Numbered from the stretch's first letter, positions 2,368 through 63,776 are shown. The stretch: 64,000 bases of DNA from Candidatus Micrarchaeota archaeon (GCA_964581105.1 CAZOMB010000004.1:672-64671), one strand, 5' to 3'. A program made the numbers and translations. Notes: generated by a model from the sequence alone, not told the origin.

Positions 2368-2413
2368 CAAAGGCAAGCGCACTATATTTATAACATTGCA
2401 CAAAACCTGTTAC

Positions 2414-4548: not shown

Positions 4549-4611
4549 ACTATCACTATTTTCATGTGCTTAATGGTTGAAGCATATGATATGACCTCTT
4601 TTTAAACATTA

Positions 4612-5127: not shown

Positions 5128-5148
5128 CTTATCAGGCATAGTGGTTTT

Positions 5149-5853: not shown

Positions 5854-5887
5854 GTTTAAAACAACTTTTGCCAGAATCTGCAACTGT

Positions 5888-6448: not shown

Positions 6449-6463
6449 ATTAGGCTAGATTCT

Positions 6464-8065: not shown

Positions 8066-8119
8066 TAGAATATGGAATGGGCAGAATAAAATAATAACAT
8101 GGGCATATGCCCTGTTTGC

Positions 8120-8803: not shown

Positions 8804-8841
8804 GATATTCTATTATTTATTACAGTATATAAAGGTTGCTC

Positions 8842-9735: not shown

Positions 9736-9749
9736 CATAAAACCAAGCC

Positions 9750-10736
9750 CTAATTGAATATCCCACTGTATAGGATAATCACAAGCAAAGCACATAATCC
9801 TTGTGCTACAATGAATGTAAGCACCAGTTTTTGCTCAGAAACTCCATTGTAAGCTTTCATGACAAGCTGGGCAGCCCCCCTTACTTTCCCTCCAGGCGCA
9901 TAAAGCTTTCCATTCTTTAGCCTTCCCCACCAGTTCTTGCTTGGGAAGCGGTTCCATGCTTTGATTGCAAAGTCAATTAAGTAAGGGATTACAAGTATTG
10001 CGCCAGCAGCCTCAAGGTTTCCTATTATGACTGTTGCTGCAAGGCTTGTGCCAATTGCAAGAGTTCCGATGTCACCCATGAAAACCTTTGCAGGGAACCA
10101 GTTGAAGCGCAAAAAAGCCAGCAAAGCGCCGAGCATTGCAGCAGAGAAAATTGCCATTTCAACTGAGCCGTTTGCAAGGGAAAGCAAGAGCGTTGCAGCA
10201 AAAATCACTGCCCCCATGCCTGCCTCCATTCCATTAAAGCCTGCCAGCATGTTTGTAAGGTTGGCAGAAACAGTGACCCCAAGCGGTATTAGCACAACAA
10301 TGTAAATTATGCCAAAGTCAACAAGCCCAATAAACGGTATGCTTATTGCAGTGCTTCCTGCAGCTGAAACCGCAACCAAAGGAAGGGCAGCAACCATTGG
10401 CAAAATTGTTTTCACATCCTTTCTCATTGTAAAAAGGTCGTCAAAAGTCCCGATAAGTGCAACAATCATTATTGTGAGCATTGCTGCAAGGACTTCAATC
10501 AGCTCAAACTCATAGCAAAAAAAGGTGTTAAATGCTATTGCAAGCAAAAGAGCCGCAATTACTCCCATTATTATGCCAAGCCCTCCCATTTCAGCTGCAG
10601 AGGGCCTGTTCCTTTTGTTGACATCCCTGCCAGTCATGCCTGCTGCAAAAAGTTTTCTTATCAAAAAAGGCATTGAAAGCAGAGTAACAGCAAGTGAGGC
10701 AAGGAAAATTGCTGCAACAAACTGCAAATCAGCCAT
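9750..10736 (-). CDS. UDP-GlcNAc:dolichyl-phosphate GlcNAc-1-P transferase-like (MraY/WecA/AglH family)
   Basis: It is a polytopic membrane protein carrying FDDLFTM and NMLAGFNGMEAGMG, which resemble the conserved cytoplasmic-loop motifs of the MraY/WecA/AglH polyprenyl-phosphate hexose-1-P transferases. Confidence 0.75.
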   Translation of the reverse strand: MADLQFVAAIFLASLAVTLLSMPFLIRKLFAAGMTGRDVNKRNRPSAAEMGGLGIIMGVIAALLLAIAFNTFFCYEFELIEVLAAMLTIMIVALIGTFDDLFTMRKDVKTILPMVAALPLVAVSAAGSTAISIPFIGLVDFGIIYIVVLIPLGVTVSANLTNMLAGFNGMEAGMGAVIFAATLLLSLANGSVEMAIFSAAMLGALLAFLRFNWFPAKVFMGDIGTLAIGTSLAATVIIGNLEAAGAILVIPYLIDFAIKAWNRFPSKNWWGRLKNGKLYAPGGKVRGAAQLVMKAYNGVSEQKLVLTFIVAQGLCALLVIILYSGIFN

Positions 10737-25730: not shown

Positions 25731-26834
25731 TTACCCCAATAAATCAAGGTCAAGCTCCTCAGCCTGCCCTGCTAATTGTGAAGCTTCCTTTTTCAGCTCA
25801 TAATGCGGGAATTTTGCCCCAGCAAGGACTGCCAAAACCTTGATTGAGCTCTTTTTTGCGCTTTTCTCAATCCTTGCGCCCCAAATAATGTGAGATGACG
25901 GGTCAATCCTCTTTGAGACTTCGCTCACAATAAGCTCAGCCTCCTTTAATGTCATGTCCTCCCCGCCAACAACATTGATAAGTGCCCTGCTTGCTGAAGT
26001 GACGTCAACATCCAAAAGAGGCGAATTCATTGCAGTGTCAACAGCAATAAGTGCCCGCTGGTCTGGCTTTGCCTCAACTGAAGCCTCTCCCATGCCAACA
26101 ACAGCACAGCCTGCTGCTGACAGGATTGTCCGCAAATCTGCAAAGTCAAGGTTCACAAGGCCTGCTTTTGTCACAAGCTCTGCAATCCCTTTTACAGCGC
26201 CTGCCAATACTTCGTCAGAAACCTTGAATGCTGTGTTAAGCGGAAGGTCTGGCACTATTGAGAGCAATTTGTCATTTGGTATTACAACCACTGTATCTGC
26301 ATGCTTTCTCAGTTTCTCAAGGCCTTCAAGCGCATTTTGCATCCTTATCTTCCCTTCAGATGAAAAAGGCAGGGTAACAACAGCTATTGTAAGCGCGCCT
26401 GCTGTTTTTGCATTTTCTGCTATTATGTGCGCGCTTCCTGTCCCTGTTCCTCCGCCCATTCCACAGGTAATGAAAAGCATCATTGAGTCTGACACTGCAT
26501 TTTTTATCTCAGAAGCCGACTCTTTTGCAGCAGCCTCCCCAAGCTGCGGGTTTGAGCCTGCGCCCATTCCTTTGGTTGTTTTTTTGCCAAGCAGTACTTT
26601 TTTGTCTGCCCTCATTTTCACCAAATGCTGAACATCAGTATTCATTGCAACCAATGTTACGCCGTCTATTTTCATCTCATGAAGCCTGCTCATTGTATTG
26701 CAGCCAGAGCCGCCAGCGCCAACAACAAATATGCGAGGCTTTGATGACTCTATGAACTTGAGTAGCTCCTCATCTTCCTTTGAGACAGTGACCCCTTCAG
26801 GGATCTGCTTTTCAACATTGTTCATGCTTGCCAT
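25731..26834 (-). CDS. ftsZ: Cell division GTPase FtsZ
   Basis: VVGAGGSGCNT and GMGGGTGTGSAHIIAE are the tubulin/FtsZ signatures. Confidence 0.9.
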   Translation of the reverse strand: MASMNNVEKQIPEGVTVSKEDEELLKFIESSKPRIFVVGAGGSGCNTMSRLHEMKIDGVTLVAMNTDVQHLVKMRADKKVLLGKKTTKGMGAGSNPQLGEAAAKESASEIKNAVSDSMMLFITCGMGGGTGTGSAHIIAENAKTAGALTIAVVTLPFSSEGKIRMQNALEGLEKLRKHADTVVVIPNDKLLSIVPDLPLNTAFKVSDEVLAGAVKGIAELVTKAGLVNLDFADLRTILSAAGCAVVGMGEASVEAKPDQRALIAVDTAMNSPLLDVDVTSASRALINVVGGEDMTLKEAELIVSEVSKRIDPSSHIIWGARIEKSAKKSSIKVLAVLAGAKFPHYELKKEASQLAGQAEELDLDLLG

Positions 26835-35825: not shown

Positions 35826-37010
35826 ATGCGAATAGCAATGCTTGGGTGGGAGTTTCCCCCATTCATATCTGGGGGCCTTGGTGTCCACTGCTTTGAGCTT
35901 ACAAAGGCGCTTTGCGAGAAAGGCGCGCAAATAGATTTTTTCATGCCTGTGTCAGGCAAGAAAATAAGCTCGCCACACAAGGGGCTGCGGATAGTGGAGG
36001 TTGCAAAAACAGTGCTTAAGCCATATATGTTTTTCTCGAAAACCGGGAAAAGGGCAGGCTATGGCAAGAACCTTGTGAATGCAGTAAAGGAATACTGGTC
36101 ACATTGCATTTCCTCAGTCCTTGCCTATTCACAGGAAAACAGGTATGACATCATACATGCGCATGACTGGCTTGCCTCAAGGGCAGGAATAGAGCTTAAG
36201 CAAAAGCTCTCAATCCCCCTAGTACAGACTTTCCATTCAACTGAATTTGACAGAACCAGCTGGCCTTGGCAATACATTCTTGACATTGAAAGGTCTGCAA
36301 CTGAAAATGCTGACCTGATAATAGCAGTGAGCAAAAGGACCGGCGACCAGGTAGAAAGGCTTGGCGCGCAAAAGCAAAGAATAAGGGTTGTTTACAATGG
36401 GGTTGACCGGGAGAAATTTTCCTCTTCCCAGGTTGAAAAACTTGGAAGCTTTAGGAAAAAAAGGAAAATAGTCCTGTTTTTGGGAAGGTTAACAGAGCAA
36501 AAAGGGCCTGTGCAGTTCCTTCATGCAGCAAAAAGGGTGCTTGCAAAAGAGCCTGACACCCTGTTTGTAATTGCAGGCAAAGGCGAGCTTCTCCCCCTTC
36601 TGATAAATATGAGCCTTGGCATGGGAATTTCAAAAAATGTACGTTTCCTAGGGTATATACCTGATGAGGAGCAGAGGAAAATATACAAGGTTGCAGACGT
36701 TTATGTAATGCCCTCAACTTCAGAGCCTTTTGGCATAACTGCACTTGAGGCAATGAGCAGTGGAGTGCCAGTAATAATATCAAAAACCTCTGGAGTTGCT
36801 GAAATAGTAAAGTCTGCAATAAAGGTTGACTTTTGGGATATAAACTCAATGGCTGACAAAATACTTGCCCTGCTTAAGTACAGGCCCCTTGCAAAAACAA
36901 TGGCAGGCATGTCATTAGGCGAGGCTGGAAAATGGACATGGGAAAGGACAGCTGCTGAGACATTGAAGGTGTATGAGGAAGCGATAAATAGTAGGAAGAG
37001 CAATAATTAA
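35826..37010 (+). CDS. Glycosyltransferase family 4/5 (glycogen-synthase-like, GT-B)
   Basis: The N-terminal IAMLGWEFPPF..GGLG is glycogen/starch-synthase-like. SEPFGITALEAM is the EX7E motif. Confidence 0.7.
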   Translation: MRIAMLGWEFPPFISGGLGVHCFELTKALCEKGAQIDFFMPVSGKKISSPHKGLRIVEVAKTVLKPYMFFSKTGKRAGYGKNLVNAVKEYWSHCISSVLAYSQENRYDIIHAHDWLASRAGIELKQKLSIPLVQTFHSTEFDRTSWPWQYILDIERSATENADLIIAVSKRTGDQVERLGAQKQRIRVVYNGVDREKFSSSQVEKLGSFRKKRKIVLFLGRLTEQKGPVQFLHAAKRVLAKEPDTLFVIAGKGELLPLLINMSLGMGISKNVRFLGYIPDEEQRKIYKVADVYVMPSTSEPFGITALEAMSSGVPVIISKTSGVAEIVKSAIKVDFWDINSMADKILALLKYRPLAKTMAGMSLGEAGKWTWERTAAETLKVYEEAINSRKSNN

Positions 37011-37011
37011 C

Positions 37012-38202
37012 TTGGTGAGATGCTTGCAAGTCTGCATATATTTCCAGGTCCATCAGCCAATGAGGCTTTCCTTATTCTCAATGTTTTCTGACAATGGGGA
37101 CTCTGGAGGGGCTTATTTTGACAAAGATTTGAACAGCAAAATAATGCAAAAGGTTGCTGAAAAGTGCTATATCCCTGCAAATCAGCTCATGCTTGAGCTT
37201 TTGGAAAACCACCCTGACTTTAAGATAAGCTATTCACTGACAGGGGTATTTATTGAGCAGTGCAAGCAGTTTGCGCCGCAAGTTTTGGAGTCTTTTGCTT
37301 CCCTTGCAAAAACAGGCAAAGTAGAGTTTTTGTCAGAGACCTATTATCACTCGCTTTCATACCTGTTTTCAGACAAGGACGAGTTTTTGGAGCAAATAAA
37401 GCTTCACAGCAAGGAAATCTCCTCATTTGCAAAGCCCTCAAAAGTATTCAGGAATACTGAGGCAATGTTTTCAAATGACATTGCCTATTTGGTTGAAAGG
37501 CTTGGGTATGAAGGCATACTTGCAGAAGGGCTTGAGCACATACTTGGCTGGCGCTCGCCAAACTACCTCTATACTGTGAATGGCTGCGAAAAAATCAAAG
37601 CCCTGCTTCGCCACTTCAAGCTTTCAGATGACATTGGCTACAGATTTTCTGCAAAATGGTGGAATGAACACCCGCTTACTGCAGACAAGTATGCGCGCTG
37701 GCTGTCAACCCTTCAGGGAGACTGTGTGAACATATTCATGGACTATGAGACATTTGGCGAGCACCACTGGAAAGACACAGGGATATTTGAGTTTTTAAGG
37801 CACTTGCCAACTGAGGTCGAAAAGCACAAGGATTTGCGGTTTGCAACCCCAACTGAGCTTGTGAAAAACATAGGGCCAAGGGATGACATAGATGTGCCCA
37901 ATTTGACCTCATGGGCAGACATGGAAAGGGACACATCTGCATGGCTTGGCAATGAAATGCAGAAAAACGCGTTTTCAGAGCTTGAAGCGCTTGGCGAAAA
38001 GGTAAAAGAGGCAAAGCATGATGGCTTGATGAGGACTTGGAGGATGCTTGGCAATTCAGACCATTTTTACTATATGTGCACAAAGTCATTGTCAGACCAG
38101 GATGTCCACAATTACTTTTCGCCCTATGACTCGCCTTTTGATGCCTACATAAACTACATGAACATATTGAATGATTTTCGGGAAAAAATTGGGAAAGTCT
38201 AA
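37012..38202 (+). CDS. Glycoside hydrolase family 57 protein
   Basis: The N-terminal CIYFQVHQPMR is the GH57 HQP motif. Its size and the adjacent GT are consistent with alpha-glucan metabolism. Confidence 0.6.
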   Translation: MVRCLQVCIYFQVHQPMRLSLFSMFSDNGDSGGAYFDKDLNSKIMQKVAEKCYIPANQLMLELLENHPDFKISYSLTGVFIEQCKQFAPQVLESFASLAKTGKVEFLSETYYHSLSYLFSDKDEFLEQIKLHSKEISSFAKPSKVFRNTEAMFSNDIAYLVERLGYEGILAEGLEHILGWRSPNYLYTVNGCEKIKALLRHFKLSDDIGYRFSAKWWNEHPLTADKYARWLSTLQGDCVNIFMDYETFGEHHWKDTGIFEFLRHLPTEVEKHKDLRFATPTELVKNIGPRDDIDVPNLTSWADMERDTSAWLGNEMQKNAFSELEALGEKVKEAKHDGLMRTWRMLGNSDHFYYMCTKSLSDQDVHNYFSPYDSPFDAYINYMNILNDFREKIGKV

Positions 38203-40412: not shown

Positions 40413-43118
40413 GTGAGCATGGCAGCAGCAAGGCAGGTAAAAGGCATGGGCAGGCAGAAAATGCTTGCAATGGTGCAAATGCTCAAAAGCGATGAAAACC
40501 TCGGGGATGCACTGCTGGTTGCGCTTGGCACGCTTTTCCTGCTTTCATCATTCATTTTTTATCCCCTTTATCTGGTGCCAGTGCTTGCTGCAATAACAGG
40601 CGCAATTGCTTACAAAAAGCCGCCATTAGGGACAATTGCTGCAATGTTCATAGCATTTCCAGCAGTTGCATATCAGGCGCCTGTTCTTGCCTGGGTATTT
40701 ACCCTGGCAATAGCAATAACCTTGTTTGAGGCATGGAACCATTGGAGCACAATCTCATTTTTGCAAATAGCAATACTTGCGCCGTTTGCCGCCTTTCCAT
40801 TTTCTCTGCTTTCCGGCTTTTTGTTCTTGGCCTTGGGAATTGCTGCCTTAAGGTTTGGAAGCAGTCACAGCTTTGCAGTCTCATTGCCAGCAATTTTTGT
40901 TGTTCTTTTGCTCTCTTCAGTATGGATGCAGCCAACAGAATCTTTCATAACAATATCAAACCAGTACTTGTCGCTTTATTCGCCAGCAATGGCCCAGCTT
41001 CAGAACAGCGCTTTGCCAGAGGTTGGGATTTTTGAGATGGCACCAGCAGCAGGAGGGGCAATTGCATCGATTTTCAGTGCGCAAAGCATAATTGCAGTTT
41101 CCCCTGCCCTTGGAAAACTTGTGAGCAATGCCTATCTTCTGATTTTCCAGGACTATGCAATTATCCAGCTGCTGGTATGGGCTGTTGCACTTTTTGTTTG
41201 CGCATTTTTGCCTGCAAGGCTTGACAGAGAGTACAAGCAGTCAATCTCATGCCTTGCCCTGTTCCTTGTGCCAATAACAAACTTTTTTGTTGCGCCTGCT
41301 TTTAACAACCCGTTTGACAGCATTTCATTTGCCTATTGCGCAGCATCAGTTGCAATAGTATTTGCAATGGAGCACTATGGCTTCAAGCTGAGCAGGGAAA
41401 GGATTGTGATGAGAAGGCAAAAGCAAAAGGCATTTGGAAAGTTTGGCATCCAAGACCTTGGAGATTCAGCAGGAGTTGAGTCGCTTGAGGATGTTGGGGG
41501 CTATAAGGACGTAAAAACAGAGCTGCAGGAGGCAATAATATCCCCAATAAAGAAAAAAGAGCTTGCCTATACATATGGGATAAAGCCCCCAAACGGAATT
41601 TTGCTTTTTGGCCCGCCTGGCACAGGAAAAACTTTGCTGATGAAAGCCCTTGCAAAGGAGCTGAATATTGGGTTTTATTATGTCAAGTGCTCTGACCTTT
41701 TGTCAGAGTGGTACGGGGAAAGCGAAAAAAACCTTTCAGAGGTATTTGCAAGCGCAAGAAAGAATGCGCCTTGCGTGCTTTTTTTTGATGAGATAGATTC
41801 CATTGGAAAAAAGAGAGACTCTTACACTTCTGACGACGTAGCCCCAAGAATAATGAGTGTGCTGCTGCAAGAGCTTGACGGATTTAGGGAAAAGAAAAAG
41901 ACTGTGATAACTATAGGGGCAACAAACATACCTGACCAGCTGGACCCTGCCTTGATGAGGCCTGGCAGGTTTGACAAGATAATTTACATGCCATTGCCAG
42001 ATGAGGCAGCAAGAAAAGCAATCTTTAAGGTGCATTTGAAAAAGCTGCCAGTTGACCAGGACCTTGACTTTGCAAAGCTGGCTGCAAAAACAAAAAGATA
42101 TTCTGGGGCAGACATAAAAAATATCTGCACAGAGGCAACCCGCCTTGCTGCAAAAGAGGCAGTAAAATCAGACGTTGTTGTGCCTGTGTCAATGAAACAC
42201 ATTCTTTCAACAATAAAAAAGCTCAAGCCTTCTGTCTCGCTATCCTCAATTGAGACTTACAAGAAGTTTAGGATGGATTATGAAAGAAGAAGCGAGGCAC
42301 AGGAAAAAAGCCCTGATGCAAAAGGAGTGCGCTGGGAAGATGTTGCAGGCCTTAAAGAGGTCAGAAGAGAGCTGCTTGAATCTATTGAGATTCCTCTTCT
42401 CCACGAGGACTTGATGAAAGACATGGATGTCCAGCCAAGCAAAGGATTGCTTCTTTTTGGCCCGCCTGGCTGCGGAAAAACAATGATAGTAAAGGCAGCT
42501 GCAAATGAGCTTAATGCAAACTTTCTCACAATATCAGGCGCAGAGCTTATGAAAGACAGGAGCAAAAGTCCCTCAGCCCATGTAAAGGAGATATTTAACA
42601 GGGCAAGAGAATCAGCGCCAGCCCTGATTTTCATTGACGAAATAGAAGCCTTGGCACCAAGCAGGGACCAGTACAGGGGGGGAATCCTTACTGAGCTTTT
42701 GCAGGAGCTTGACGGGATAAATGAGCTGAAAAATGTGCTTCTTGTCGGCGCAACAAACAAGCCAGGCACACTTGATGCTGCAATTTTAAGGCCTGGCAGG
42801 TTTGACAAGATAATTTACATACCGCCTCCAGACGAGCCTGCAAGGAAAAAGATATTTACAATAAATTTGGCAAAATTCCTGAAAGCAGTGAGCCTTGACA
42901 GGCTGGCAAAAGCAAGCGAGGGCTTTTCAGGCGCTGACATTGCCTCTGTATGCCAAAAGGCAAAAATGCAGATGGTAAGAAACAGGTTGAGAGGAAAGCC
43001 CTCAGCACTGAAAACAGCAGACGTAATAAGGATAATTGAAAAGAGAAGGCCATCAATAACGCAAAAGGCCTTGAGAAACTATTTTGCATTCATGCAGGAA
43101 TATGGCGAAAGAAAGTAA
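40413..43118 (+). CDS. Membrane-anchored Cdc48/VCP-like double-AAA ATPase (N-terminal polytopic domain, then D1 and D2 AAA modules)
   Basis: About 330 aa carrying 8-10 hydrophobic helices come first. [14 protein letters not shown]...[12 protein letters not shown] is D1 and [14 protein letters not shown]...[10 protein letters not shown] is D2. Both have second-region-of-homology arginines (PGRFDKIIY twice). Confidence 0.8.
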
Positions 43119-43262
43119 GCTATTATAGCTTTGTTATAAGTTTGCTTTTTTCAGGGGAAATAAGGCGAGGAAAACAGAAATTGACTTTATTTGCCTTTTT
43201 TAACAACCAAACTTCGTCAGTTTTATGGTGATTAATACTGGCATTGTCGATATTAAACCTTT

Positions 43263-43305
43263 TATTTATAAACTATTTTTTAAAAAACTCATAAAAATTT
43301 ATAAA
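43263..43305 (+). promoter_or_regulatory. Two TTTATAAAC TATA-like boxes in an AT-rich leader upstream of the S-layer candidate
   Basis: ttttatttataaac and aaatttataaacat are visible. A leader of about 170 nt precedes the start codon. Confidence 0.4.
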
Positions 43306-43471
43306 CATAGCTCAAGACATCCTTCCTGCCTTCCTATGAGGGGCGCTTGACCACGCTCTGAGGTTAAGGGGTATGAAAAAGAAAAATTGAATGAAATCGA
43401 TACAGGGCAAAAAATACATGTCGTCGATAAATTTTGTACCATGCCCTGAAAGACGACATTGAGGTGAAAAA

Positions 43472-46255
43472 ATGAAAGGGATAAACGTAAAGAAAATTGC
43501 GGCCCTTGCCGGCACGGGTATCCTTTTGGGAGCCAGCTTAGGTTTCGCCGATGTAGTATATGGCGACACCCAGGTTGTTGACCAGAATGGACAACCGACA
43601 GTAAAGGTTTATGTCGGCAGCGCAGCAGCAATCTCTGACGGTGTGGCAGCAGCCAACATCGCAGCAAAGATTGCAAACGAGGCATATATGAGCTCGACTC
43701 TGACTGCCTCAGTGAGCGGAGACCCGACCTGCACAGTCGGATCTGACGTTGGTGGAACTGGAACTTGCGAACTCGTTGAGAGCAGCAAGACAGTTACTCT
43801 TGAAGTAACCCTGCCAGGAAGCATTGCAGGAACCCACCAGTTTAAGACGCTCATAACAGACACGGTTGACAGGACCCTGCAAAACAGGAATGCCACAAGG
43901 TCTGAGGACAACTATACCTCAACCATGGGCTCTTCTGACACGTCAGGTGCACTTACTTCACCGCTTAGGGCGGTAGAAGGAGACACTGCAAGGGCAAAGA
44001 ACCTTTACAAGATTGGTTCTGGCCAATTCACTGGCTTTGCTGACTACTCTATGGTAGACACACAGGCAGTGAGCACCACGTACACTGAAGAGCAGAACTT
44101 TTGGGTTGGCTCTACTGTGGGCGGTGTTAAGTATGATTCCTCTTCAGCATATAGGGACATCATAGTTAACAAGTTCAGAGCAATGGCCTATAACCTGAAG
44201 TTCACTGGTAATGACTATGGTATTCCAGTGTGCACTGGAGACCTTAACTCAACCCTATCTGACGACTGGACGAGTTGCGCAACTGACTCCAACTCAAGGA
44301 CTGACAGGCACAGGCTTAAGCTTAAGTTCCTGGGTTCTGAGTGGATAATCAGTGAAATGAATGACCCTGTCCTCACAATGAGGAGCCAGGTCAATGCAAC
44401 CAGCGGAGGAACTGTCAAGCTTGCCAAAGAGGCAAAGTATGGCATTGTCCAGGTCGGAGGAGTGCTCGACGCAGGAACATTCCAGATCAGGCTGTCAGAC
44501 ATTTCAGTCGCAGTCGGAGCTGCAAATGTGCACCCTGCAATCATTGACGTGCTCGACGCCAACGAGGCAGTCGTAGGACAGATTCAGGTCGACCCAGGCT
44601 CTACCTATACTTTCACTCAGAGCGGAACTGGCAACACAGTGAAGATTCACGTGTATAAGACTGCGCCAGGTTTCACACTGAACGCAAAGTGGGCAGAGAT
44701 GGCAATCTACTCTGATGAGGTTACCCTTAAGGATGGCCAGAGATACAACCTTGTTTCATCCACTGACACTGACAAGAACTTTAAGGTGTCTTTGATTTGG
44801 AAGAACAGGGACTTTACTGGCTCAACAGGAGGAAACGACTCATCTGCAGACTCACTTCGTGAGATCGTTGTGTATAACATTGACGGTCTTGACAGCAAAG
44901 TGGCTGCAGGAGATGTTGTAAACTTCCTTGAGGCAGCACCAACATTTAAGCTGACCTACAATGGGCTTGACCTTACTGACGACGACTACCAGCCTCTTAC
45001 ATATGACGCTCTGTCACCAGACACATACCGTGTTGCAACCACCACAGGTGATGTTGCATGCGGCGCAACAAGTGCTGCTGACTGGTCATATGCAGACGCC
45101 AAGTGGGTTGAGATAAAGACTGGCGGAGTCCAGCTTCTCGGAGGAAGTGGCACCAACCTTATCAATGGTGGCTACTTGCTTGAGAAGGTTTACTTTGACC
45201 CAATCGGTAGATACAACAACAGCAGCTCAACCTTTAATGGGACCTTTAACCAGAGCGTGCGGAAGGAGATGTGGAACCCCACTATCTTCTGGAAGGTTTC
45301 AGGAAGGGACTGCTATAACTGGAACAGCTTTAGCTACGAAGGTGCAGCATACACAACCACTGACTCAAACGCAGTTAGGTTTGAGACAGCCGGCGACAAC
45401 ACTGCTGCACTTGGTGGAATCTTCTTCACCAACAATTCAACCCTTACGACAACTGCCTCTGATACGGCAAGTTTCCAGGGAGCAATTGTTCTGAAAGAAG
45501 ACGCTGGCTACTATGGATTGACCAGCAACAACGCAGTGTACACTGCTATACCGTATATTGCAAACGGAAGCAGCAGCACAAGCGGAACCAACCCCTTCAG
45601 GTTTAGGACTGCGGACTCATCTACTCAGCAGGCATATTACAACTCGCTTGCTGGCGGTATCTGGTTCACAGGCTATGAGCCAACATTTGTAAGTGAGAGG
45701 GGATCAAAGGTTACCAGCGTTGGAACCACTGACGCAGACTTCAAGGTTGCAAAGAGAGTCGGACTCGCGGAGTTCAACTTTGCCTTTGCAGACACCTCAG
45801 CCGCAACCGGCGGAGAGGAATATGTGCTTGGAGTTGGCGACAGCAAAGTGTTTGGTGGCGTGACTGTATTGGTCAAGGCCATTGACGCTGATTGCGGAAG
45901 CTGCTCAGTTCTCGGCCCAGGCGGAACACCTGCATGCACTGTTGACACAACAGACCTTACTGCTGTGATTAACCCGAACAACGCGGCATCTGTTGAGGTA
46001 ACTGAACCTTACAAGCTGACCTCTAACATGGTCATGCTTGACACAGATGGCCCAAGCGCTGGCGTGGCAATTACAGTCGGTGGACCTGCTGTCAACACAA
46101 TGACTGCAGACGCTCTCCAAGACTCAAGTGTTGACTTCAACGTTGACACTGTAGTCGTTAAGGAGGTCGGCAACAAGATAGTTGTTGCAGGACTGACTGC
46201 TGAGGACACTTTGACTGCTGCAGACCAGTTTATTGCTGGTGTGAAGAGGCAGTAA
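43472..46255 (+). CDS. Major cell-surface (S-layer candidate) protein, 927 aa
   Basis: It has a signal peptide. Codon usage is strongly NNC/NNG-biased (GAC, AAC, AAG, TTC, TAC), unlike the rest of the window. It has a long leader and strong promoter. A hairpin plus oligo-T terminator follows. A paralog lies at 19593-22271. Confidence 0.6.
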   Translation: MKGINVKKIAALAGTGILLGASLGFADVVYGDTQVVDQNGQPTVKVYVGSAAAISDGVAAANIAAKIANEAYMSSTLTASVSGDPTCTVGSDVGGTGTCELVESSKTVTLEVTLPGSIAGTHQFKTLITDTVDRTLQNRNATRSEDNYTSTMGSSDTSGALTSPLRAVEGDTARAKNLYKIGSGQFTGFADYSMVDTQAVSTTYTEEQNFWVGSTVGGVKYDSSSAYRDIIVNKFRAMAYNLKFTGNDYGIPVCTGDLNSTLSDDWTSCATDSNSRTDRHRLKLKFLGSEWIISEMNDPVLTMRSQVNATSGGTVKLAKEAKYGIVQVGGVLDAGTFQIRLSDISVAVGAANVHPAIIDVLDANEAVVGQIQVDPGSTYTFTQSGTGNTVKIHVYKTAPGFTLNAKWAEMAIYSDEVTLKDGQRYNLVSSTDTDKNFKVSLIWKNRDFTGSTGGNDSSADSLREIVVYNIDGLDSKVAAGDVVNFLEAAPTFKLTYNGLDLTDDDYQPLTYDALSPDTYRVATTTGDVACGATSAADWSYADAKWVEIKTGGVQLLGGSGTNLINGGYLLEKVYFDPIGRYNNSSSTFNGTFNQSVRKEMWNPTIFWKVSGRDCYNWNSFSYEGAAYTTTDSNAVRFETAGDNTAALGGIFFTNNSTLTTTASDTASFQGAIVLKEDAGYYGLTSNNAVYTAIPYIANGSSSTSGTNPFRFRTADSSTQQAYYNSLAGGIWFTGYEPTFVSERGSKVTSVGTTDADFKVAKRVGLAEFNFAFADTSAATGGEEYVLGVGDSKVFGGVTVLVKAIDADCGSCSVLGPGGTPACTVDTTDLTAVINPNNAASVEVTEPYKLTSNMVMLDTDGPSAGVAITVGGPAVNTMTADALQDSSVDFNVDTVVVKEVGNKIVVAGLTAEDTLTAADQFIAGVKRQ

Positions 46256-46267
46256 AGGTAGCCAAAC

Positions 46268-46313
46268 GGGAAAGTGAAAGCTTTCCCACCCTTTTTTCTT
46301 TTTCTGTTTTTTT
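46268..46313 (+). terminator. Hairpin (GGGAAAG...CTTTCCC) followed by a T-tract (CTTTTTTCTTTTTCTGTTTTTTT)
   Basis: This is visible directly downstream of the 927-aa gene. Confidence 0.5.
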
Positions 46314-46423
46314 ACAATTCTTAGCAAGAGCCCTGCCAAAACTAATACTTATATAAATTCTGGGAGGCGAAATTTAGGTAGCGCGCTTGCTGCGACCAAA
46401 AGCGCGCATAAGGTGGTGCTTGA

Positions 46424-48538: not shown

Positions 48539-49009
48539 ATGAAGCTTAAAGAAAAGGACAAGTTAGCCTTGTTTGCGCTTATTGGAGTGCTTGCAATTGC
48601 AGCAGGAGCATATGTGCTGCTTTTCTCAGAAGAGCCGGACAATCCTTCTGACATTGACGGCTTTGTCTCTTCTGTTATGCGCTCAAGCTCTGTTTCCCTG
48701 TTTTTTGATGTCAGAGGGGCAGATGCTGACTCTTCAAGGCTGATTTACCAGTGCGGGGTTGACCTTGTAGGCGGCAAGCTGCTTGGGGCAAAGACAATAA
48801 ACACATATGCATGCGATGATAAGGGATGCCTTTCAGCAAGCTCTGCTGCAAACGGGAGCAATTCTTTGACATATGAGCAGGTGAAAAACAATCTCAAAAA
48901 AGAGCCATATGTCCTGATAGCTAAAGGCACTCCTGAAACCAAATTCTTTGAAAGGCATATGGAAATCTACATAGACCAGAGCTTTATCTCAACCTGCAAG
49001 CTTGGCTAA
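48539..49009 (+). CDS. Small N-terminally anchored protein, unknown function
   Basis: A single TM is present (LALFALIGVLAIAAGAYVLLF). Confidence 0.4.
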   Translation: MKLKEKDKLALFALIGVLAIAAGAYVLLFSEEPDNPSDIDGFVSSVMRSSSVSLFFDVRGADADSSRLIYQCGVDLVGGKLLGAKTINTYACDDKGCLSASSAANGSNSLTYEQVKNNLKKEPYVLIAKGTPETKFFERHMEIYIDQSFISTCKLG

Positions 49010-53898: not shown

Positions 53899-55593
53899 AT
53901 GAAAGAATCAACAAAGCTCAAGTATGAGCTCAAAAAGCAGCTTGCCCATTTGCGCGGCATGAAAGGCAGTGGAACTGAGCTGATATCAGTTTACATACCT
54001 GCAAACCAGGCAGTGCATGAGACCTCAAGCAAGCTTAAGGGGGAATCAGGCCAGGCATCAAACATAAAGAGCAAAAGCACAAGGAAAAATGTAGGAGACG
54101 CGCTTGAGAAGATAATTCATCATTTGAAAAGCTATGGAAACAAGGCGCCAAGCACAGGGGTTGCAATATTTTGCGGCAATGTTTCTGACAGCCCTGCAAA
54201 AACAGACATTTCTCTTTTCACTGTGTTTCCCCCTGAGCCGTTGGGAGTCCAGCTTTACCGCTGTGACTCTCGCTTTTTCTTGGAGCCGCTTGAAAGGATG
54301 CTGGAATCAGACGAAACATACGGGCTTGTAGTGCTTGACGGAAGGGAATGCACAATTGCAGAGCTTCGGGGGACAGTTGTCAGGACATTGCACAGGCTAA
54401 ACTCCACTGCGCATGCAAAAATCCGGAAGGGAGGACAATGCCTTGCGCCTGATACTCTTGTTCAGACTTCAGATGGTGAGCTGGTACCTGTTTCTGAGGT
54501 TGTCCCGGGAATTAAAATAAAAGGAGCAGATTTGTCAAAGCTTAAGATATGCGATTGGGAGTGTTCCGACAAATTCAAAACAAAGTCAAAAAAAGCATAT
54601 AGGATAGCTGTTCAGAACTCAAAGATGGAAATTGTCGCAACTGCATGGCATCGGTTCTTTACAGTCGGAAAAAAAGGCATTGAAGAAATCTATGCAAAAA
54701 ACTTGAAGATAGGAAGTGTTCTACTTATTGCCAGAAAAGCGTTCAAGAATGACCCTGACACAAAGCATGGTGAGCCATCTGAAAAAATGCTCAAAAAATG
54801 GCTGTCTGAAGACATTGGAGTGGCAAGAGTGGCAAAACTAATACCAATAGAAGGAGAAAAAGAATATATTGACCTTACTGTGCCAAATGCATTCAACTTT
54901 GTGGCAAATGGCTTTATTGTGCACAACAGCGCCCGCAGATATGAGAGACTGATTGAAGAGTCAATTGAAAAGTATTACAAAAGGGTGGGAGTGTCAATGG
55001 ACAGGTATTTTGTTAACAAGGTAAAAGGAGTGATAGTTGGAGGCCCTGGCCCCACAAAGGAGAATTTTGTGAAAATGTCGCCATTTAATTACCAGATAAA
55101 AGTGCTTGGAGTGGTTGACACTGGCTATACTGATGACTATGGGGTAAGGGAGGTAATGGCAAAAAGCAAGGACATTATAGCAGAGCAGGCTGCAATAAAG
55201 GAAAAAGCGCTTGTTGAAAGGTTCATAAAAGAAGTTGTGTCAAACGGGCTTGCCACTTATGGGGAAAAAGAAGTAAGGCAAGCCTTAAAGGTAAAAAAGG
55301 CATCAAAGCTGCTTGTATCAGAAGGCTTGGAATACAAGAGGGCAAAGCTTGTTGATACTACTACAAAAGAAGTTCATTATGCAACCACAAAAAGCCCTTC
55401 TGAGCTTGAGGAAAAAATAAAGAAAATTGGCGGCACAGTAAAAGTTGAGGAGCAAATACCGCTTATTGATGACTTGATTGCCCTTGCTGAGGAAAAGAAC
55501 ATTGAAGTAATTGTAATTTCCCCTGACACTGCAGAAGGAGCGCAATTTTTAGGCTCATTTTACGGCATAGGCGCATTTTTGAGGTACCGCTAG
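53899..55593 (+). CDS. prf1: Peptide chain release factor aRF1 precursor interrupted by a mini-intein
   Basis: The N-terminal GSGTELISVYIP and the GGQ motif are present. The C-terminus ...FLGSFYGIGAFLRYR is typical aRF1. The extein lengths sum to about 401 aa. Confidence 0.85.
   Translation: MKESTKLKYELKKQLAHLRGMKGSGTELISVYIPANQAVHETSSKLKGESGQASNIKSKSTRKNVGDALEKIIHHLKSYGNKAPSTGVAIFCGNVSDSPAKTDISLFTVFPPEPLGVQLYRCDSRFFLEPLERMLESDETYGLVVLDGRECTIAELRGTVVRTLHRLNSTAHAKIRKGGQCLAPDTLVQTSDGELVPVSEVVPGIKIKGADLSKLKICDWECSDKFKTKSKKAYRIAVQNSKMEIVATAWHRFFTVGKKGIEEIYAKNLKIGSVLLIARKAFKNDPDTKHGEPSEKMLKKWLSEDIGVARVAKLIPIEGEKEYIDLTVPNAFNFVANGFIVHNSARRYERLIEESIEKYYKRVGVSMDRYFVNKVKGVIVGGPGPTKENFVKMSPFNYQIKVLGVVDTGYTDDYGVREVMAKSKDIIAEQAAIKEKALVERFIKEVVSNGLATYGEKEVRQALKVKKASKLLVSEGLEYKRAKLVDTTTKEVHYATTKSPSELEEKIKKIGGTVKVEEQIPLIDDLIALAEEKNIEVIVISPDTAEGAQFLGSFYGIGAFLRYR
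54439..54927 (+). mobile_element. Mini-intein (163 aa) inserted directly after the GGQ motif of aRF1
   Basis: In KIRKGGQ|CLAPDTLV... the intein starts with Cys (block A). VATAWHRFF is block B TxxH. It ends ...NFVANGFIVHN|SARRYERL, with HN plus a +1 Ser (block G). There is no homing-endonuclease domain. Confidence 0.75.
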
Positions 55594-56546
55594 CGTTTCC
55601 CAAGAGAAGTAGGCATGTTAAGCCCAGTGAAAATTGCCATTGCCTGAAGCTTGCCTGCAAAGCTTTCTTCCATCCTTGCGCCATAAATTACATTTGCATG
55701 CGGGTCTATCTGCTCTGTCAAAAGCTCTCCTGCCCTTGTTGCATCGCCAAGCGTCAGGTCAGCACCGCCTGTAATATGCAAAAGAACGCCTTTTGAGCCT
55801 TCTATGTCAACGTCAAGCAGCCTGTTTTTCAGAGTGTTTTTCACCAAATCATCCACCCTTCCAACGCCAGCTGCCTCGCCAACTGCAATCATTGAAATTC
55901 CTCCCCCTTGTGCAACTGTCCTGACATCCATATAATCCAGATTCAGAAGGGATGGCTCAAGTATGGTTTTTGAAATGCATCTTACAGCCCTTGCCATTAT
56001 CTCGTCAAGAAGCTCAAATGACTTTTCAATTGGCATGTTAGGCGCATACTCTAAAAGGCGGTTGTTGTCAATAAGCACAAGTGTGTCTGCAACTTTTTTC
56101 AGGTTTTCAATTCCTTGCTGAGCCTTTTGCAGCCTTGCCCTTTCAATTGTAAAAGGATAAGTTACAAATGCTATTACTATTGCGCCCTGCTCTTTTGCTA
56201 TTTGGGCAATAACCGGAGATGCGCCTGTTCCAGTTCCGCCCCCCATTCCGCATGTTATGAAAACAAGGTCTTTGTCAGACAGTATTTCCTGTATTTTCCT
56301 TTTTGAAGAGGTTGCTGCCTTTGCTGCAACCTCAGGAAAGCCCCCAGCCCCAAGGCCTCTTGTGACTGCCCCTCCGATAAGGCAGCGCTTTGCCTTTTCA
56401 GAAACAATGTTAAGGTGCTTTTTGTCTGTATTAAACGCTGCAAGCTCTGTTTTTCCAACTCCCATCCTGACTAGCCTGTTTATTGTGTTGCAGCCTGCTC
56501 CTCCAACTCCTGCTACTGCGATTGCTGGCTTGCCTTCCTCATCCAT
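55590..56546 (-). CDS. FtsZ/tubulin-family GTPase (second paralog, FtsZ2/CetZ-like, 318 aa)
   Basis: AVAGVGGAGCNT and GMGGGTGTGASPVIAQ are the tubulin/FtsZ signatures. Confidence 0.8.
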   Translation of the reverse strand: MDEEGKPAIAVAGVGGAGCNTINRLVRMGVGKTELAAFNTDKKHLNIVSEKAKRCLIGGAVTRGLGAGGFPEVAAKAATSSKRKIQEILSDKDLVFITCGMGGGTGTGASPVIAQIAKEQGAIVIAFVTYPFTIERARLQKAQQGIENLKKVADTLVLIDNNRLLEYAPNMPIEKSFELLDEIMARAVRCISKTILEPSLLNLDYMDVRTVAQGGGISMIAVGEAAGVGRVDDLVKNTLKNRLLDVDIEGSKGVLLHITGGADLTLGDATRAGELLTEQIDPHANVIYGARMEESFAGKLQAMAIFTGLNMPTSLGKR

Positions 56547-60953: not shown

Positions 60954-63776
60954 TTAGCAGACTTGTTCTGGGTCTGGGCACACAGGGTTTTGGCCTGGGC
61001 AGTCTGAGCATGGGTACTCGTCTTTCCATGCAGTTACTGGTCCAATGCAGCAGCAGCCATATGTGACCTGATTCATGCCGATTGAATAATACATGCTGTC
61101 AGTTTCAGCATATTTGCAGGTAGTATAGCACTGCTCTTCTGTCAATGCATTAAGCGCATCTTCAAGGTCTTGGTCTATTTTTGCCTCGCATGCCAGCCTG
61201 TCATTTTCGCCTTGTGCATATGAGTCAAGAGCATATGCAGAGCATTCTGCTGCGCAGTTTACAGGCACTGGGTCGCAGGCATCTCCTATTCCATCACTGT
61301 CTCGGTCACCTTGGCCTGGGTTGTAATCTCCTGGGCAGTTGTCATAGTCATCGCATACATTGTCCTCATCAGTGTCAATGCATACGCACAGGCAGTTTTC
61401 GCACACTTCATCCTGCATACAGTCTGAAGTCTCTTCGCACTCTTCACCGCCGTAGATTATGCCGTCGCCGCAATAAAGCTCATAATTGCACTCTGTGCAG
61501 TCAGCTGAGCAGCTGCCTTGTATTGTCTGGCCCTGCATTTGCATTATGCAGTCTGCATCGCTTTCACATGCCTCGCCTGACTCCAGTATTTGGTTGCCGC
61601 ACTCTGCTGCAGGAAGCTCACATGTGCAATACTCGCTGCAATATGCTTCTGCGCTGCACAAGCCAGTGTCATTGCCGTCGCACTCCTCTGTGCCTTCCCT
61701 GACCCCGTTTCCGCACTCTTGCACTGCTTCCTGGCACTGGTAATCATATGTGCATAAGTCCTGCCCAGTGCCTGATATGTTCACGCAGGCGCCGTTCAGG
61801 CATTCTTTGTGATAATTGACTGTTTCATTCGCCTGCTTTTTTGTGCATGTGCATGAGCTTGCATGGCACTCATAAGCTGCTCCTGTCATCCTGTCACAGT
61901 CATCTATGCAGGTCATTGTGCCAAGCTTGAAGTTGTTTATGTCTGTTTGTATTACTTCCCCTGTATTGTCTGCGCAGCTCACTTCCTCTCTCTTTGTGCA
62001 TGTGCATGAGCTTGCATAGCACTCATAAGCAGAGCCAAGCTGCTTTACACAGTCATCCTTGCAGGTCATTTTGCTTGCGTCAAAGTCATTTACATCTGTT
62101 TCAATCACTTTTGCAGTATGCTCTGCGCAGCTCACTGGCTCTTCTTCTGGCTTTTTGGTACAGGTGCATGAACCAGTGTTGCACTCATACTCATCTCCAA
62201 GAACGCTCTTGCAGTCATCTTTGCAGATTTGCGGCGGCTTAAAAGTATTCTTGTCTGTTGCATCAACTTTTTGTGTATTTGTTGCGCAGCTTATTGTTTC
62301 ATTCTTAGGAGTTTCGTTCTGTGGTGGTGTTTCATTTTTTGGGGGCTGCTCTTCCTTTCTGCAAACGCATGGAGGTATTATGCATTTCTCAGCCGGGTCT
62401 AAGCAAGGAATGCCAACTTCGCATTCCTCAAACCATTCAAGCACCTTGTTGCCGCACCATGCTTCCTCCTGAGGATAGCACATGCAGTCAAGCCAGCATA
62501 TGTCGGCTGCGTTTGGGCATGGGATTCCGACTTCGCACTGCTCAGGCGGCTGCAGCACCTTGTCCCCGCAATATGGGCCTGGCTTTCTAAGCTCGCGAAG
62601 CGGGCTGACTGCTGGGTTTCTTTCATATGAATTCATCAGAAGAGGGTCAAGCTGTGCTGGGGCTGACCACATTCCTGCCTCAAGGTATGAGTAATATATC
62701 TCTCCAGGGGGAATTGTCTGGCCCCACCATACAACAAGGCCAATTGACCTGTCTTTTATGAATACTAGCGACGGCCTGTCATCAGAATCAGAAAGCCCTG
62801 ATGAGACCAAAGCCTCTGCTGCAGGCGAATTAACGTCAGGCTGGTGGAATATGTCCTTGCCTTTTGCAAATGCGCTGTTTGCCTTTTCAGAAGCAGAGTA
62901 ATAAACGTCTGGCATTGCTCCGCTTGCAAATTTGCTTGGTGTTGCTCCAAGCTTCACAGAGTAAACAGTGCCAGAGTCAGGGTAAACTGCTGTTGTTTCC
63001 TTTTTTGTCTTTGCTGCTGCAATTCCTGTCCTTTGGTCTGTTGGCACATTGTTGTCAACAACAGCTGAGCCTGAGACTGCAACTGCATTTGACCATGCGT
63101 TTACTGCATATACTGCTGCATGCGCACCTTTGTTGCTTGTGAAAACAAGGTAATAGCCTCCATCATACTCGCTGTATGTGAGTTCAGGCAGGGAAACTTT
63201 TTCCACTTCGCCAATGTCTATCTTTTTTGGCAATGTCCAGTCTTTGCTGCTTACATAATAGGAATAGTAAAGCTCCTTGTTATTTCTCACCCATACTGCA
63301 AGTGCGTCTCCTGATGGGCCCACTGCAACTGTTGGGTCAGTGCCAATTGCGCTTTCCTTTATTTTTGCAGGAGGGTACCAGGCGTCATTTTGCCATATTG
63401 AATAGTAAATCATGCTCTGGCTGCTGTGCTCTTTTGACCAGACTGCAACCGCTGTCTTAAGATTTGAGGATACGTCAGGGTCATGGTCATTTCCAAAGTC
63501 AACTGCAATTGGCTTTGAGGTCTTGCCTGTGCTTGTATACCATGCTTTTGCGTCATGGTCCCAAAGGGAATACCAGATGTCAAATGTCTCATCCTTGTGC
63601 TGCCATACTGCTATTGCATCAGGAGACCTATCCTCTGAAACCTGAAGATATGGGCACCCTGACAAAAAAACAAAAGCAAGCACAGCAGAAATTAGAATTA
63701 TACCCTTGGCATACAAGCAAAACCACCCCGCACGAGATAGATTGAATGACAAAACCTTAAAAAGCCTGTGCTGCAT
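60954..63776 (-). CDS. Large secreted/lipoprotein-like Cys-rich surface protein with a W-rich repeat domain, tandem Cys-rich repeats and a TSP3-like Ca-binding repeat
   Basis: The N-terminus has a TM/lipobox-like LSGC. Three AVW...YYS.W...AW units follow. Three tandem copies of about 50 aa follow the pattern SCA..T..V..TD.N.F......C.DDC....G..YEC...SCTCTK. The motif CGNKVLEWFEECEVGIPC appears twice. DNCPGDYNPGQGDRDSDGIGDACDP is thrombospondin-type-3-like. Confidence 0.6.
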   Translation of the reverse strand: MQHRLFKVLSFNLSRAGWFCLYAKGIILISAVLAFVFLSGCPYLQVSEDRSPDAIAVWQHKDETFDIWYSLWDHDAKAWYTSTGKTSKPIAVDFGNDHDPDVSSNLKTAVAVWSKEHSSQSMIYYSIWQNDAWYPPAKIKESAIGTDPTVAVGPSGDALAVWVRNNKELYYSYYVSSKDWTLPKKIDIGEVEKVSLPELTYSEYDGGYYLVFTSNKGAHAAVYAVNAWSNAVAVSGSAVVDNNVPTDQRTGIAAAKTKKETTAVYPDSGTVYSVKLGATPSKFASGAMPDVYYSASEKANSAFAKGKDIFHQPDVNSPAAEALVSSGLSDSDDRPSLVFIKDRSIGLVVWWGQTIPPGEIYYSYLEAGMWSAPAQLDPLLMNSYERNPAVSPLRELRKPGPYCGDKVLQPPEQCEVGIPCPNAADICWLDCMCYPQEEAWCGNKVLEWFEECEVGIPCLDPAEKCIIPPCVCRKEEQPPKNETPPQNETPKNETISCATNTQKVDATDKNTFKPPQICKDDCKSVLGDEYECNTGSCTCTKKPEEEPVSCAEHTAKVIETDVNDFDASKMTCKDDCVKQLGSAYECYASSCTCTKREEVSCADNTGEVIQTDINNFKLGTMTCIDDCDRMTGAAYECHASSCTCTKKQANETVNYHKECLNGACVNISGTGQDLCTYDYQCQEAVQECGNGVREGTEECDGNDTGLCSAEAYCSEYCTCELPAAECGNQILESGEACESDADCIMQMQGQTIQGSCSADCTECNYELYCGDGIIYGGEECEETSDCMQDEVCENCLCVCIDTDEDNVCDDYDNCPGDYNPGQGDRDSDGIGDACDPVPVNCAAECSAYALDSYAQGENDRLACEAKIDQDLEDALNALTEEQCYTTCKYAETDSMYYSIGMNQVTYGCCCIGPVTAWKDEYPCSDCPGQNPVCPDPEQVC
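61830..62295 (-). repeat. Three tandem coding repeats of about 150 bp inside the 940-aa gene
   Basis: There is DNA-level repetition, e.g. tgtgcatgtgcatgagcttgcat(g/a)gcactcataagc at about 61845 and about 61998. Coordinates are approximate. Confidence 0.6.

Follow-up and report, generated by a model that had tools for sequence, protein, structure and literature searches.

Positions 43472 to 46255 of a 64,000-nucleotide (nt) stretch of DNA from a Candidatus Micrarchaeota archaeon, hereafter called the window, very probably hold the surface-layer (S-layer) protein gene of this organism, an Anstonellaceae-like member of the DPANN archaea. The gene appears to be set in a dedicated high-output cassette. 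The assignment draws on homology, domain layout, codon bias, covariation in the leader RNA, and conserved gene order. S-layer proteins of Micrarchaeota have been recognised and annotated before, and this gene encodes a further ortholog. By itself the protein contributes little, and the value lies in the leader RNA and in the conserved gene cluster. New here are a pseudoknot in the leader, a candidate kink-turn (K-turn), a conserved pair of TATA boxes together with a terminator hairpin, and a gene order that is kept across the phylum. The coordinates of these features are collected in Table 1.

The S-layer protein and its codon usage

The gene encodes a protein of 927 amino acids (aa) that can be placed in known archaeal S-layer families. 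It matches the Pfam S-layer family PF05124 with 50.8 bits (curated cut-off 23.9, E 2e-13) and the NCBIfam family TIGR01564 with a score of 29.3 (curated cut-off 25, E 3.4e-7). The PF05124 match spans aa 38-922 although the model has 177 positions, and the domain is therefore split between both ends of the protein. A profile of 75 homologues matches PDB entry 9FSA (E 1.1e-11) in two places: positions 37-73 align with chain residues 14-50, and positions 834-915 align with chain residues 58-149. An AlphaFold2 model of the protein was obtained with a mean predicted local distance difference test (pLDDT) score of 82 and a predicted template modelling (pTM) score of 0.70. When this model was searched with Foldseek, 9FSA was the only meaningful match, with a probability of 1.0 over 86 columns. 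The entry is the S-layer anchor domain of Methanococcus voltae, residues 24-75 and 484-576, and it forms the two-fold axis of the predicted M. voltae lattice (PMC11410804). Comparison with known archaeal S-layer folds, which the initial annotation of this DNA had called for, thus yields a match for both anchor halves.

The N-terminus is Sec-like as read from the sequence, with MKGINVKK, 17 hydrophobic residues, and then GFA followed by D. Ala26 is nearly invariant across the 75 homologues, and the signal peptide is probably cut after this residue. In the model, aa 1-25 have pLDDT values below 50. The mature protein has a mass of 95 kDa and an isoelectric point (pI) of 4.5, a size and charge that fit an S-layer protein. 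Thr, Ser, and Asn together make up 25.8% of the protein, and the S-layer domain is its only Pfam match. Hence the signal peptide, the Thr/Ser/Asn-rich composition, and the lack of enzymatic motifs that had been reported for this protein are borne out. The proposal that it is a major S-layer or cell-envelope protein is supported by the two family scores above their cut-offs, the match to 9FSA, the S-layer proteins among its Micrarchaeota relatives, and the precedent of Candidatus Micrarchaeum harzensis.

A database search returned 280 homologues, and the named ones are each an "S-layer protein" of Candidatus Micrarchaeota, Micrarchaeia, or Anstonellaceae. The close relatives are Micrarchaeota "S-layer proteins" of roughly 900 aa. 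Species-representative genomes yielded 67 loci when scanned, all of them in Micrarchaeota or close relatives, and 985 clusters at 50% identity came from the full profile scan. In experiments on M. harzensis, the S-layer protein of that organism was its most abundant protein and had the third-highest transcript, ran ~30 kDa heavy on gels, stained for glycan, and was associated with a ~16 nm lattice seen by freeze-etching (bioRxiv 10.1101/2021.04.28.441871). Of 49 Micrarchaeota genomes, 38 have homologues according to the same source. A six-fold lattice of 18.5 nm is known from a second cultivated Micrarchaeon (PMC11329633). The Methanosarcina S-layer tile protein (MSTP), a DUF1608-like beta-sandwich, has been proposed for Micrarchaeota (bioRxiv 10.1101/2024.05.28.596244). 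By analogy with the lattice-linked protein of M. harzensis, the protein described here would also form a lattice.

Among the 47 genes in the window, the S-layer gene has the most skewed codon usage. The initial annotation had noted a distinct codon style with GAC, AAC, AAG, and TTC preferred, and this is confirmed. These codons have synonymous usages of 0.87, 0.81, 0.85, and 0.51 in the S-layer open reading frame (ORF), against 0.63, 0.52, 0.45, and 0.27 in the other 46 ORFs of the window. Pooled over two-fold codons, NNC/(NNC+NNT) is 0.729 for the gene and 0.481 for the other ORFs (Fisher 3e-12), and NNG/(NNG+NNA) is 0.802 and 0.492, respectively (Fisher 1e-9). The gene tops all 47 ORFs in both fractions (z 3.2 for NNC and 3.7 for NNG). 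Its scaled chi-square is 0.309, whereas 1000 samples matched to it in composition and length gave 0.045 +/- 0.011 with a maximum of 0.108. In the orthologous loci, NNC use of the S-layer gene is higher than that of its flanks in 47 of 48 (Wilcoxon 1e-14). This pattern spans genomes with a third-position G+C content (GC3) of 0.21-0.86, and a low-GC example has 0.66 against 0.24. The gene ranks first for codon bias within its neighbourhood in most of the loci compared. A lack of codon bias had been named at the outset as grounds for abandoning the proposal; the bias is present in the window and in these orthologous loci alike.

An unusual codon usage can also come from foreign DNA or from a local shift in composition, and the S-layer gene does have the highest GC (0.50) and GC3 (0.52) of the window. 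However, third-base G+C at four-fold sites is unchanged (0.328 in the gene, 0.318 elsewhere), and the changes are codon-specific. The gene avoids GGG (0.03 vs 0.24) and ATA (0.18 vs 0.48) and favours GGT (0.23 vs 0.05) and ATC (0.36 vs 0.10), in addition to its preference for NNC codons and AAG. For these two reasons the bias is not a GC shift. The direction of the bias is shared by the 47 orthologous loci over the whole range of GC3, and the gene is vertically conserved inside a syntenic cluster. A foreign or compositional source is already largely refuted and retains almost no probability. The codon pattern is the one expected from translational selection. With codon bias as a proxy, the S-layer gene would be highly expressed in this organism.

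Promoters and structured leader

The S-layer gene is preceded by an intergenic stretch of 353 bp (43119-43471). It had been described as a 350-bp AT-rich region with two boxes and a leader of about 170 nt. The length of the region stands, but it is just moderately AT-rich, with ~64-69% A+T against ~56% for the window. The two boxes are also present. The 64 kb contain exactly two copies of the sequence TTTATAAAC, at 43265 and 43298. The count of two is by itself not significant, since 12 of 100 shuffles reach it. As a pair with a spacing of exactly 33 bp, the TATA boxes are found again in at least 15 orthologous loci, some of which share as little as 40-46% S-layer protein identity. TATA box 2 is probably the main promoter. 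From the usual archaeal distance between TATA box and start, transcription would begin near 43328-43333. The leader predicted from the TATA positions would be ~176 nt long from box 1, close to the earlier figure, but ~143 nt from box 2.

Other elements of this region are also conserved. The box upstream of TATA box 1 resembles TTGACGA, and its G, C, G, and A are invariant in an alignment of 18 loci. It may be a transcription factor binding site. The Shine-Dalgarno sequence GAGGTG precedes the start codon in nearly all orthologous loci. An upstream ORF from the conserved ATG of CCTATGA was considered and dropped, as neither its length nor its frame is conserved. A scan for sigma-70 promoters, which are irrelevant to an archaeon, gave a result at chance level.

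Just upstream of the Shine-Dalgarno sequence, the leader contains a pseudoknot of two interleaved helices, A and B. In distant loci both strands of both helices change and the pairing is kept, as in GGGGCC/GGCCCC, CCTGTTACC/GGTAACAGG, AGCCACC/GGTGGCT, and CTACCGTC/GACGGTAG. In a MAFFT alignment of 43 loci, 90% of the cells pair, against 34-47% with slid partners. All 16 pairs have changed on both sides, and none of 500 shuffles matches what is observed. For the helices taken separately, pairing is seen in 88-89% of cells for A and in 92-94% for B, with two-sided changes at 14-16 of 15-16 pairs, and slid controls reach 33-47%. The G.U pairs point to the + strand as the one that carries the pseudoknot RNA.

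The pseudoknot is specific to the S-layer gene. Over 1.14 Mb of sequence, a covariance model built from helix B only picks out 53 matches, a single one for each locus, and all are on the + strand and immediately upstream of the S-layer gene. No other match was found elsewhere in the window or in the flanks of the loci. Helix A is outside this model, and it pairs in 88% of cells with two-sided changes at 5 of 6 pairs. As a specificity control only, metagenomes were scanned with a loose gapped RNA pattern. It had at least 120 chance matches, and none of the 80 that were fetched from soil, human gut, and other metagenomes passed the covariance model. RNAalifold recovered helix B and one hairpin from the leaders of the window's clade, with little covariation because these leaders are too similar. 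Folding of the single leader sequence was uninformative (z = -0.7), as is expected for a pseudoknot. In Rfam 15, the best hit to 43100-43500 had an E-value of 0.23, and the hits were to unrelated eukaryotic families, all far below gathering scores. No description of the pseudoknot was found in the searchable literature.

The 5' strand of helix B is followed by an unpaired stretch of 12 nt that is strongly conserved, G-N-U-A-A-U-N-U-U-Y-R-U. Extra hairpins are inserted in some loci, solely after this stretch. A further box, AAACACC(C)AAA, recurs in loci that have a long spacer between pseudoknot and ribosome-binding site (L011, L015, L016, L027, L028, L032, L033, and L044). Its CACC is complementary to GGUG of the Shine-Dalgarno sequence, and the box may be a sequestering element for the ribosome-binding site.

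A candidate K-turn hairpin is located at the predicted 5' end of the mRNA that would start from TATA box 2. Its CCTATGA box is invariant in 18 loci. The K-turn layout, with covarying canonical (C) and non-canonical (NC) stems, is found in ~26-30 of 50 loci, and stem variants include UCUCC/GGGGA, GUUCC/GGAGC, and AGACCUC/GAGGUUU. A K-turn finder gave scores of at least 9.5 to 28% of the real leaders, whereas shuffles reached this threshold in 1.9% of cases and reverse complements in 4%. The hairpin has the C stem, the 3-nt bulge, the tandem G.A/A.G pairs, and the NC stem of a K-turn, as a match to a sequence pattern only. L7Ae represses translation via K-turns in archaeal 5' leaders (PMC5539422, PMC6298567). 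The candidate hairpin is at the extreme 5' end and ~100 nt from the start codon, and therefore stabilisation seems at least as likely as repression.

The best guess is that the leader and the 3' structures stabilise a very abundant S-layer mRNA and keep its translation efficient. High transcription would come from one or two TATA promoters. The 5' hairpin, perhaps in complex with L7Ae, and the 3' hairpin would protect a long-lived mRNA. The compact pseudoknot would hold upstream sequence off an exposed and strong ribosome-binding site, and the optimised codons would sustain the flux of translation. A protein such as L7Ae may dock either on the K-turn or on the loop of the pseudoknot that is conserved and unpaired. 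The precursor would be exported by Sec, with the signal peptide probably cleaved behind Ala26. About 50 residues from the start and 80 from the end of the mature protein would then co-fold into an anchor domain of the Methanococcus type, dimeric in M. voltae, and the exposed part of the layer would consist of the ~770 beta-rich residues that separate the anchor halves.

The pseudoknot, with or without the K-turn, could instead be a true regulatory switch that tunes S-layer synthesis, either as a riboswitch or as the target of a feedback protein, and not a mere stabiliser. Its partner could be a small molecule, L7Ae, unassembled S-layer protein, or a dedicated RNA-binding protein. A switch is quite possible, though short of probable. 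It stays a serious alternative because the conserved loop argues for a specific partner: some 12 unpaired nucleotides are strongly conserved beside helices that are free to vary, and insertions are tolerated solely after this core. The exclusive association of the pseudoknot with the S-layer gene also fits a switch, as does the position of helix B, which ends 1-2 nt before the Shine-Dalgarno sequence in the window's clade. The repression by L7Ae in other archaea, cited above, offers a precedent. However, anything from 12 to 62 nt separates the pseudoknot from the start codon among the loci, and hiding of the ribosome-binding site is therefore not a conserved mechanism. No alternative fold has been demonstrated, and no Rfam riboswitch class matches the leader. 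S-layer genes are also usually constitutive and very highly expressed.

A broader suggestion is more tentative than the switch itself. The leader may belong to an undescribed class of archaeal cis-regulatory RNA, specific to the S-layer genes of Micrarchaeota, that binds a partner and sets S-layer output, with the neighbouring genes as anchoring and assembly machinery. In such a doubtful scheme, the partner could be an envelope or glycan-supply metabolite, L7Ae, or the S-layer protein, and the K-turn would possibly act jointly with the pseudoknot. To our knowledge, few cis-acting structured RNAs are known in archaea, and none was found described for DPANN. A leader RNA that is supported by covariation and tied across a phylum to the envelope gene taken as the most expressed could make it possible to test how symbionts with reduced genomes control or sustain the protein in which they invest most.

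Table 1. Features of the S-layer gene and its surroundings (positions in the window; signal peptide cleavage, promoter, and K-turn assignments are predictions).
Feature	Position	Strand	Remarks
Upstream neighbour, 901 aa	40413..43118	+	Membrane-anchored, two AAA+ ATPase domains (Cdc48-like); Pfam AAA twice, E 4e-84
Upstream box ATTGTCGAT	43243..43251	+	Consensus TTGACGA; ~15 nt 5' of TATA box 1
TATA box 1 TTTATAAAC, distal promoter	43265..43273	+	~-205 from ATG; conserved in orthologous loci
TATA box 2 TTTATAAAC	43298..43306	+	~-172 from ATG; preceded by A-rich stretch resembling a B recognition element (BRE)
Candidate K-turn hairpin	43333..43363	+	CC-UAU-GA-GGGGCG-CUUGACCA-CGCUCU-GA-GG; predicted mRNA 5' end
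Leader pseudoknot, two interleaved helices	43403..43459	+	Covariation; just 5' of Shine-Dalgarno
Helix A	43403-43409 with 43442-43448	+	CAGGGCA with TGCCCTG
Helix B	43418-43425 with 43452-43459	+	ATGTCGTC with GACGACAT
Conserved pseudoknot loop GAUAAAUUUUGU	from 43426	+	
Shine-Dalgarno GAGGTG	43461..43466	+	5 nt 5' of ATG
S-layer protein gene	43472..46255	+	927 aa; ATG start
Signal peptide	43472-43549	+	aa 1-26
Anchor domain, N-terminal part	43550-43702	+	aa ~27-77
Beta-rich central region	43703-46018	+	aa ~78-849
Anchor domain, C-terminal part	46019-46252	+	aa ~850-927
Terminator	46268..46313	+	GGGAAAGT-GAAA-GCTTTCCC hairpin, then ACCC and three T runs
Downstream neighbour, 701 aa	46424..48529	+	Assigned by gene order
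156-aa protein	48539..49009	+	N-terminal membrane anchor; 9 nt after 701-aa gene

Gene order, paralogues, and glycosylation

The S-layer gene is followed by a hairpin with an 8-bp GC-rich stem (46268-46287) and T runs, in agreement with the stem-loop and oligo-T terminator of the initial annotation. An equivalent hairpin, CCCC, and a run of T5-8 are conserved in position in 31 of 36 loci. The stem sequences differ among these loci, and 4-nt loops such as GAAA are common.

The genes on either side of the S-layer gene are conserved as well. The order double-AAA ATPase, S-layer gene, 701-aa gene, 156-aa gene is kept in most Micrarchaeota loci (the window and L003-L067). It holds down to 35% identity of the S-layer protein and 23-25% of the 701-aa protein. 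From this order, the AAA ATPase would be functionally linked to the S-layer gene. The 156-aa gene is probably co-transcribed with the 701-aa gene, judging by their spacing. In the 701-aa protein, a signal peptide is accompanied by a large ectodomain built as a helical bundle, by a transmembrane hairpin, and by an alpha/beta domain at the C-terminus. Invariant cysteines occur in both the ectodomain and the C-terminal domain, and the latter weakly resembles clostripain-like proteases (E about 0.1). There are 69 homologues of the 701-aa protein, all "hypothetical". It was modelled by AlphaFold2 with a pLDDT of 84, and it has no Pfam family and no significant fold match in the PDB. Neither the 701-aa nor the 156-aa protein belongs to a described family.

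It is unlikely that the 701-aa protein is a one-to-one SlaB-like stalk, because its gene lies behind the terminator and has ordinary codon usage. It could be a low-copy anchoring or assembly factor, and on the strength of gene order both it and the 156-aa protein are candidates for S-layer anchoring or assembly. The M. harzensis paper leaves open how an S-layer protein without an anchor attaches to the cell (bioRxiv 10.1101/2021.04.28.441871). The four-gene cluster gives candidates for this attachment.

Some metagenome-assembled genomes contain a second S-layer-like gene in addition to the syntenic copy (loci L022, L036, L055, L061, and L069). These second genes do not have the leader pseudoknot, and their codon bias is weaker in the four whose flanking genes sufficed for the comparison (all but L061). 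This suggests one main S-layer gene per genome, accompanied by accessory surface proteins.

The window also has a paralogue of the core of the S-layer protein, at 19593-22271 (+). It encodes a secreted protein of 892 aa with no Pfam match, and the order of its domains is swapped. The S-layer residues 510-771 correspond to 19704-20411 (35% identity, 5e-38) and residues 100-510 to 20382-21554 (48% identity, 2e-113). The paralogue has no anchor domain, ordinary codon usage, and a tail that is Cys-rich and Ser/Thr/Gly-rich.

The core domains are thus found in this paralogue, and they are found in larger surface proteins too. The product of the S-layer gene could therefore be thought of as another abundant surface protein, such as a host-attachment adhesin, that shares the S-layer-type anchor and does not form a lattice. 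DPANN archaea depend on host contact (PMC11329633), and the central region of the protein has no significant match among solved structures. But the gene is a single syntenic copy with the strongest codon bias of its neighbourhood in most loci. Its signature of PF05123/PF05124 and TIGR01564 is also that of the lattice-linked protein of M. harzensis. The anchor domain, the leader motif, and the bias are missing from the paralogues and not from the syntenic copy. Such a different surface protein is very improbable.

There are several points to be set against an S-layer protein gene in a high-output cassette, which is the assignment preferred here. The ~770 central residues are confidently modelled, and Foldseek found no significant match for them among solved structures. 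The protein has no membrane anchor of its own, as no C-terminal anchor is seen in its sequence. The gene for L11 (22315-22812), the sole ribosomal-protein gene found among the window ORFs of at least 150 aa, has an NNC fraction of 0.65 and thus shares the NNC preference, but its AAG usage is just 0.21. The pseudoknot helices are invariant in the window's own clade, and the covariation comes from distant loci. The ends of the aligned RNA segment were chosen by complementarity, which is a mild bias. Finally, the protein has 12 N-x-S/T sequons where 10.4 +/- 2.8 are expected from composition (shuffles, P = 0.35). Frequent sequons had been put forward as a signature of this protein, and with no excess over composition this part of the initial annotation is weakened.

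The sequon density of the S-layer protein, 12.9 per 1000 aa, is the highest of the window, and the sequons at N140, N589, and N593 are present in 43-51% of homologues. Some of the sites are probably glycosylated. The glycan had been attributed to a locus at 1-12 kb. A glycan-related cluster is indeed located there (727-12460), with a Wzx/MurJ-like flippase, a phosphohexomutase, a sugar-phosphate nucleotidyltransferase, an epimerase/dehydratase, and an AglH-like GT4 enzyme. The 574-aa protein at 10736-12460 is F-rich, is probably a membrane protein, and has no Pfam match. However, no AglB motif (WWDxG) occurs in any frame of the 64-kb window, and nothing was found to link the cluster to the S-layer protein. 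A GT4 glycosyltransferase and a GH57 enzyme at 35826-38202 are nearer to the S-layer gene than this cluster is.

Other genes in the window may be of separate interest. The eRF1 gene (53899-55593, +) carries an intein, with Pfam Intein_splicing between eRF1_1 and eRF1_2. An acidic protein of 940 aa (60954-63776, -) has a pI of 4.3, 7.4% cysteine (70 Cys codons), and no Pfam family. There are two FtsZ/tubulin-family genes (25731-26834, -, and 55590-56546, -).

Comparison with known S-layer systems

The protein described here resembles SLP_Mh, the S-layer protein of Candidatus M. harzensis. Both come from the same phylum, are acidic and ~100 kDa in size, have an N-terminal signal with a predicted cut after Ala26, and have many N-x-S/T sites with no transmembrane anchor. 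The putative link to the SLP_Mh family consists of the shared domain signature (PF05123/PF05124, TIGR01564), size, pI, and phylum. The host of SLP_Mh is an acidophilic member of the Micrarchaeaceae, whereas the lineage described here is Anstonellaceae-like and neutrophilic. In the part available, the M. harzensis paper describes neither leader RNA structures nor conserved neighbour genes.

The anchor is like that of the S-layer proteins of Methanococcales and Thermococcales (TIGR01564, PF05123/PF05124), which is made up of ~50 N-terminal and ~90 C-terminal residues. Unlike in M. voltae, where the insert between the anchor halves is ~410 aa, the insert here is ~770 aa, and neither its sequence nor a Foldseek search reveals a similarity to solved structures. 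By analogy with M. voltae, the protein here is assumed to dimerise and to form a p6 lattice.

The two-component SlaA/SlaB type of the Sulfolobales was considered and rejected. The 701-aa neighbour is membrane-anchored and conserved in position, but its gene is behind the terminator and has a TATA-like box of its own. A SlaB-type stalk was likewise set aside for this protein, which has the ordinary codon usage described above and no significant match among solved structures, SlaB included.

The candidate K-turn is comparable to those of Sulfolobus acidocaldarius l7ae and other mRNAs targeted by L7Ae, in that a 5'-leader hairpin contains a C-box-like UAUGA/GAUGA and a D-box-like CUGA/YGA. Unlike in those mRNAs, the candidate here belongs to the message of an S-layer gene, where it is predicted to lie at the very 5' end, ~100 nt away from the start codon. 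It can be detected in about half of the S-layer loci.

Bacterial S-layer cassettes have tandem promoters and long structured 5' leaders. In Lactobacillus, the structured 5' leader of slpA reportedly stabilises the mRNA, and the leader of Thermus thermophilus slpA is said to be bound by the S-layer protein itself. The cassette described here is like the bacterial ones in having more than one predicted promoter, an unusually long structured leader, a strong ribosome-binding site, biased codons, and a strong terminator. Unlike in bacteria, the promoters are archaeal TATA boxes. Where the bacterial slpA leaders have simple 5' stem-loops, the leader here would combine a pseudoknot that has a conserved loop with a K-turn-like hairpin, an arrangement read from sequence.

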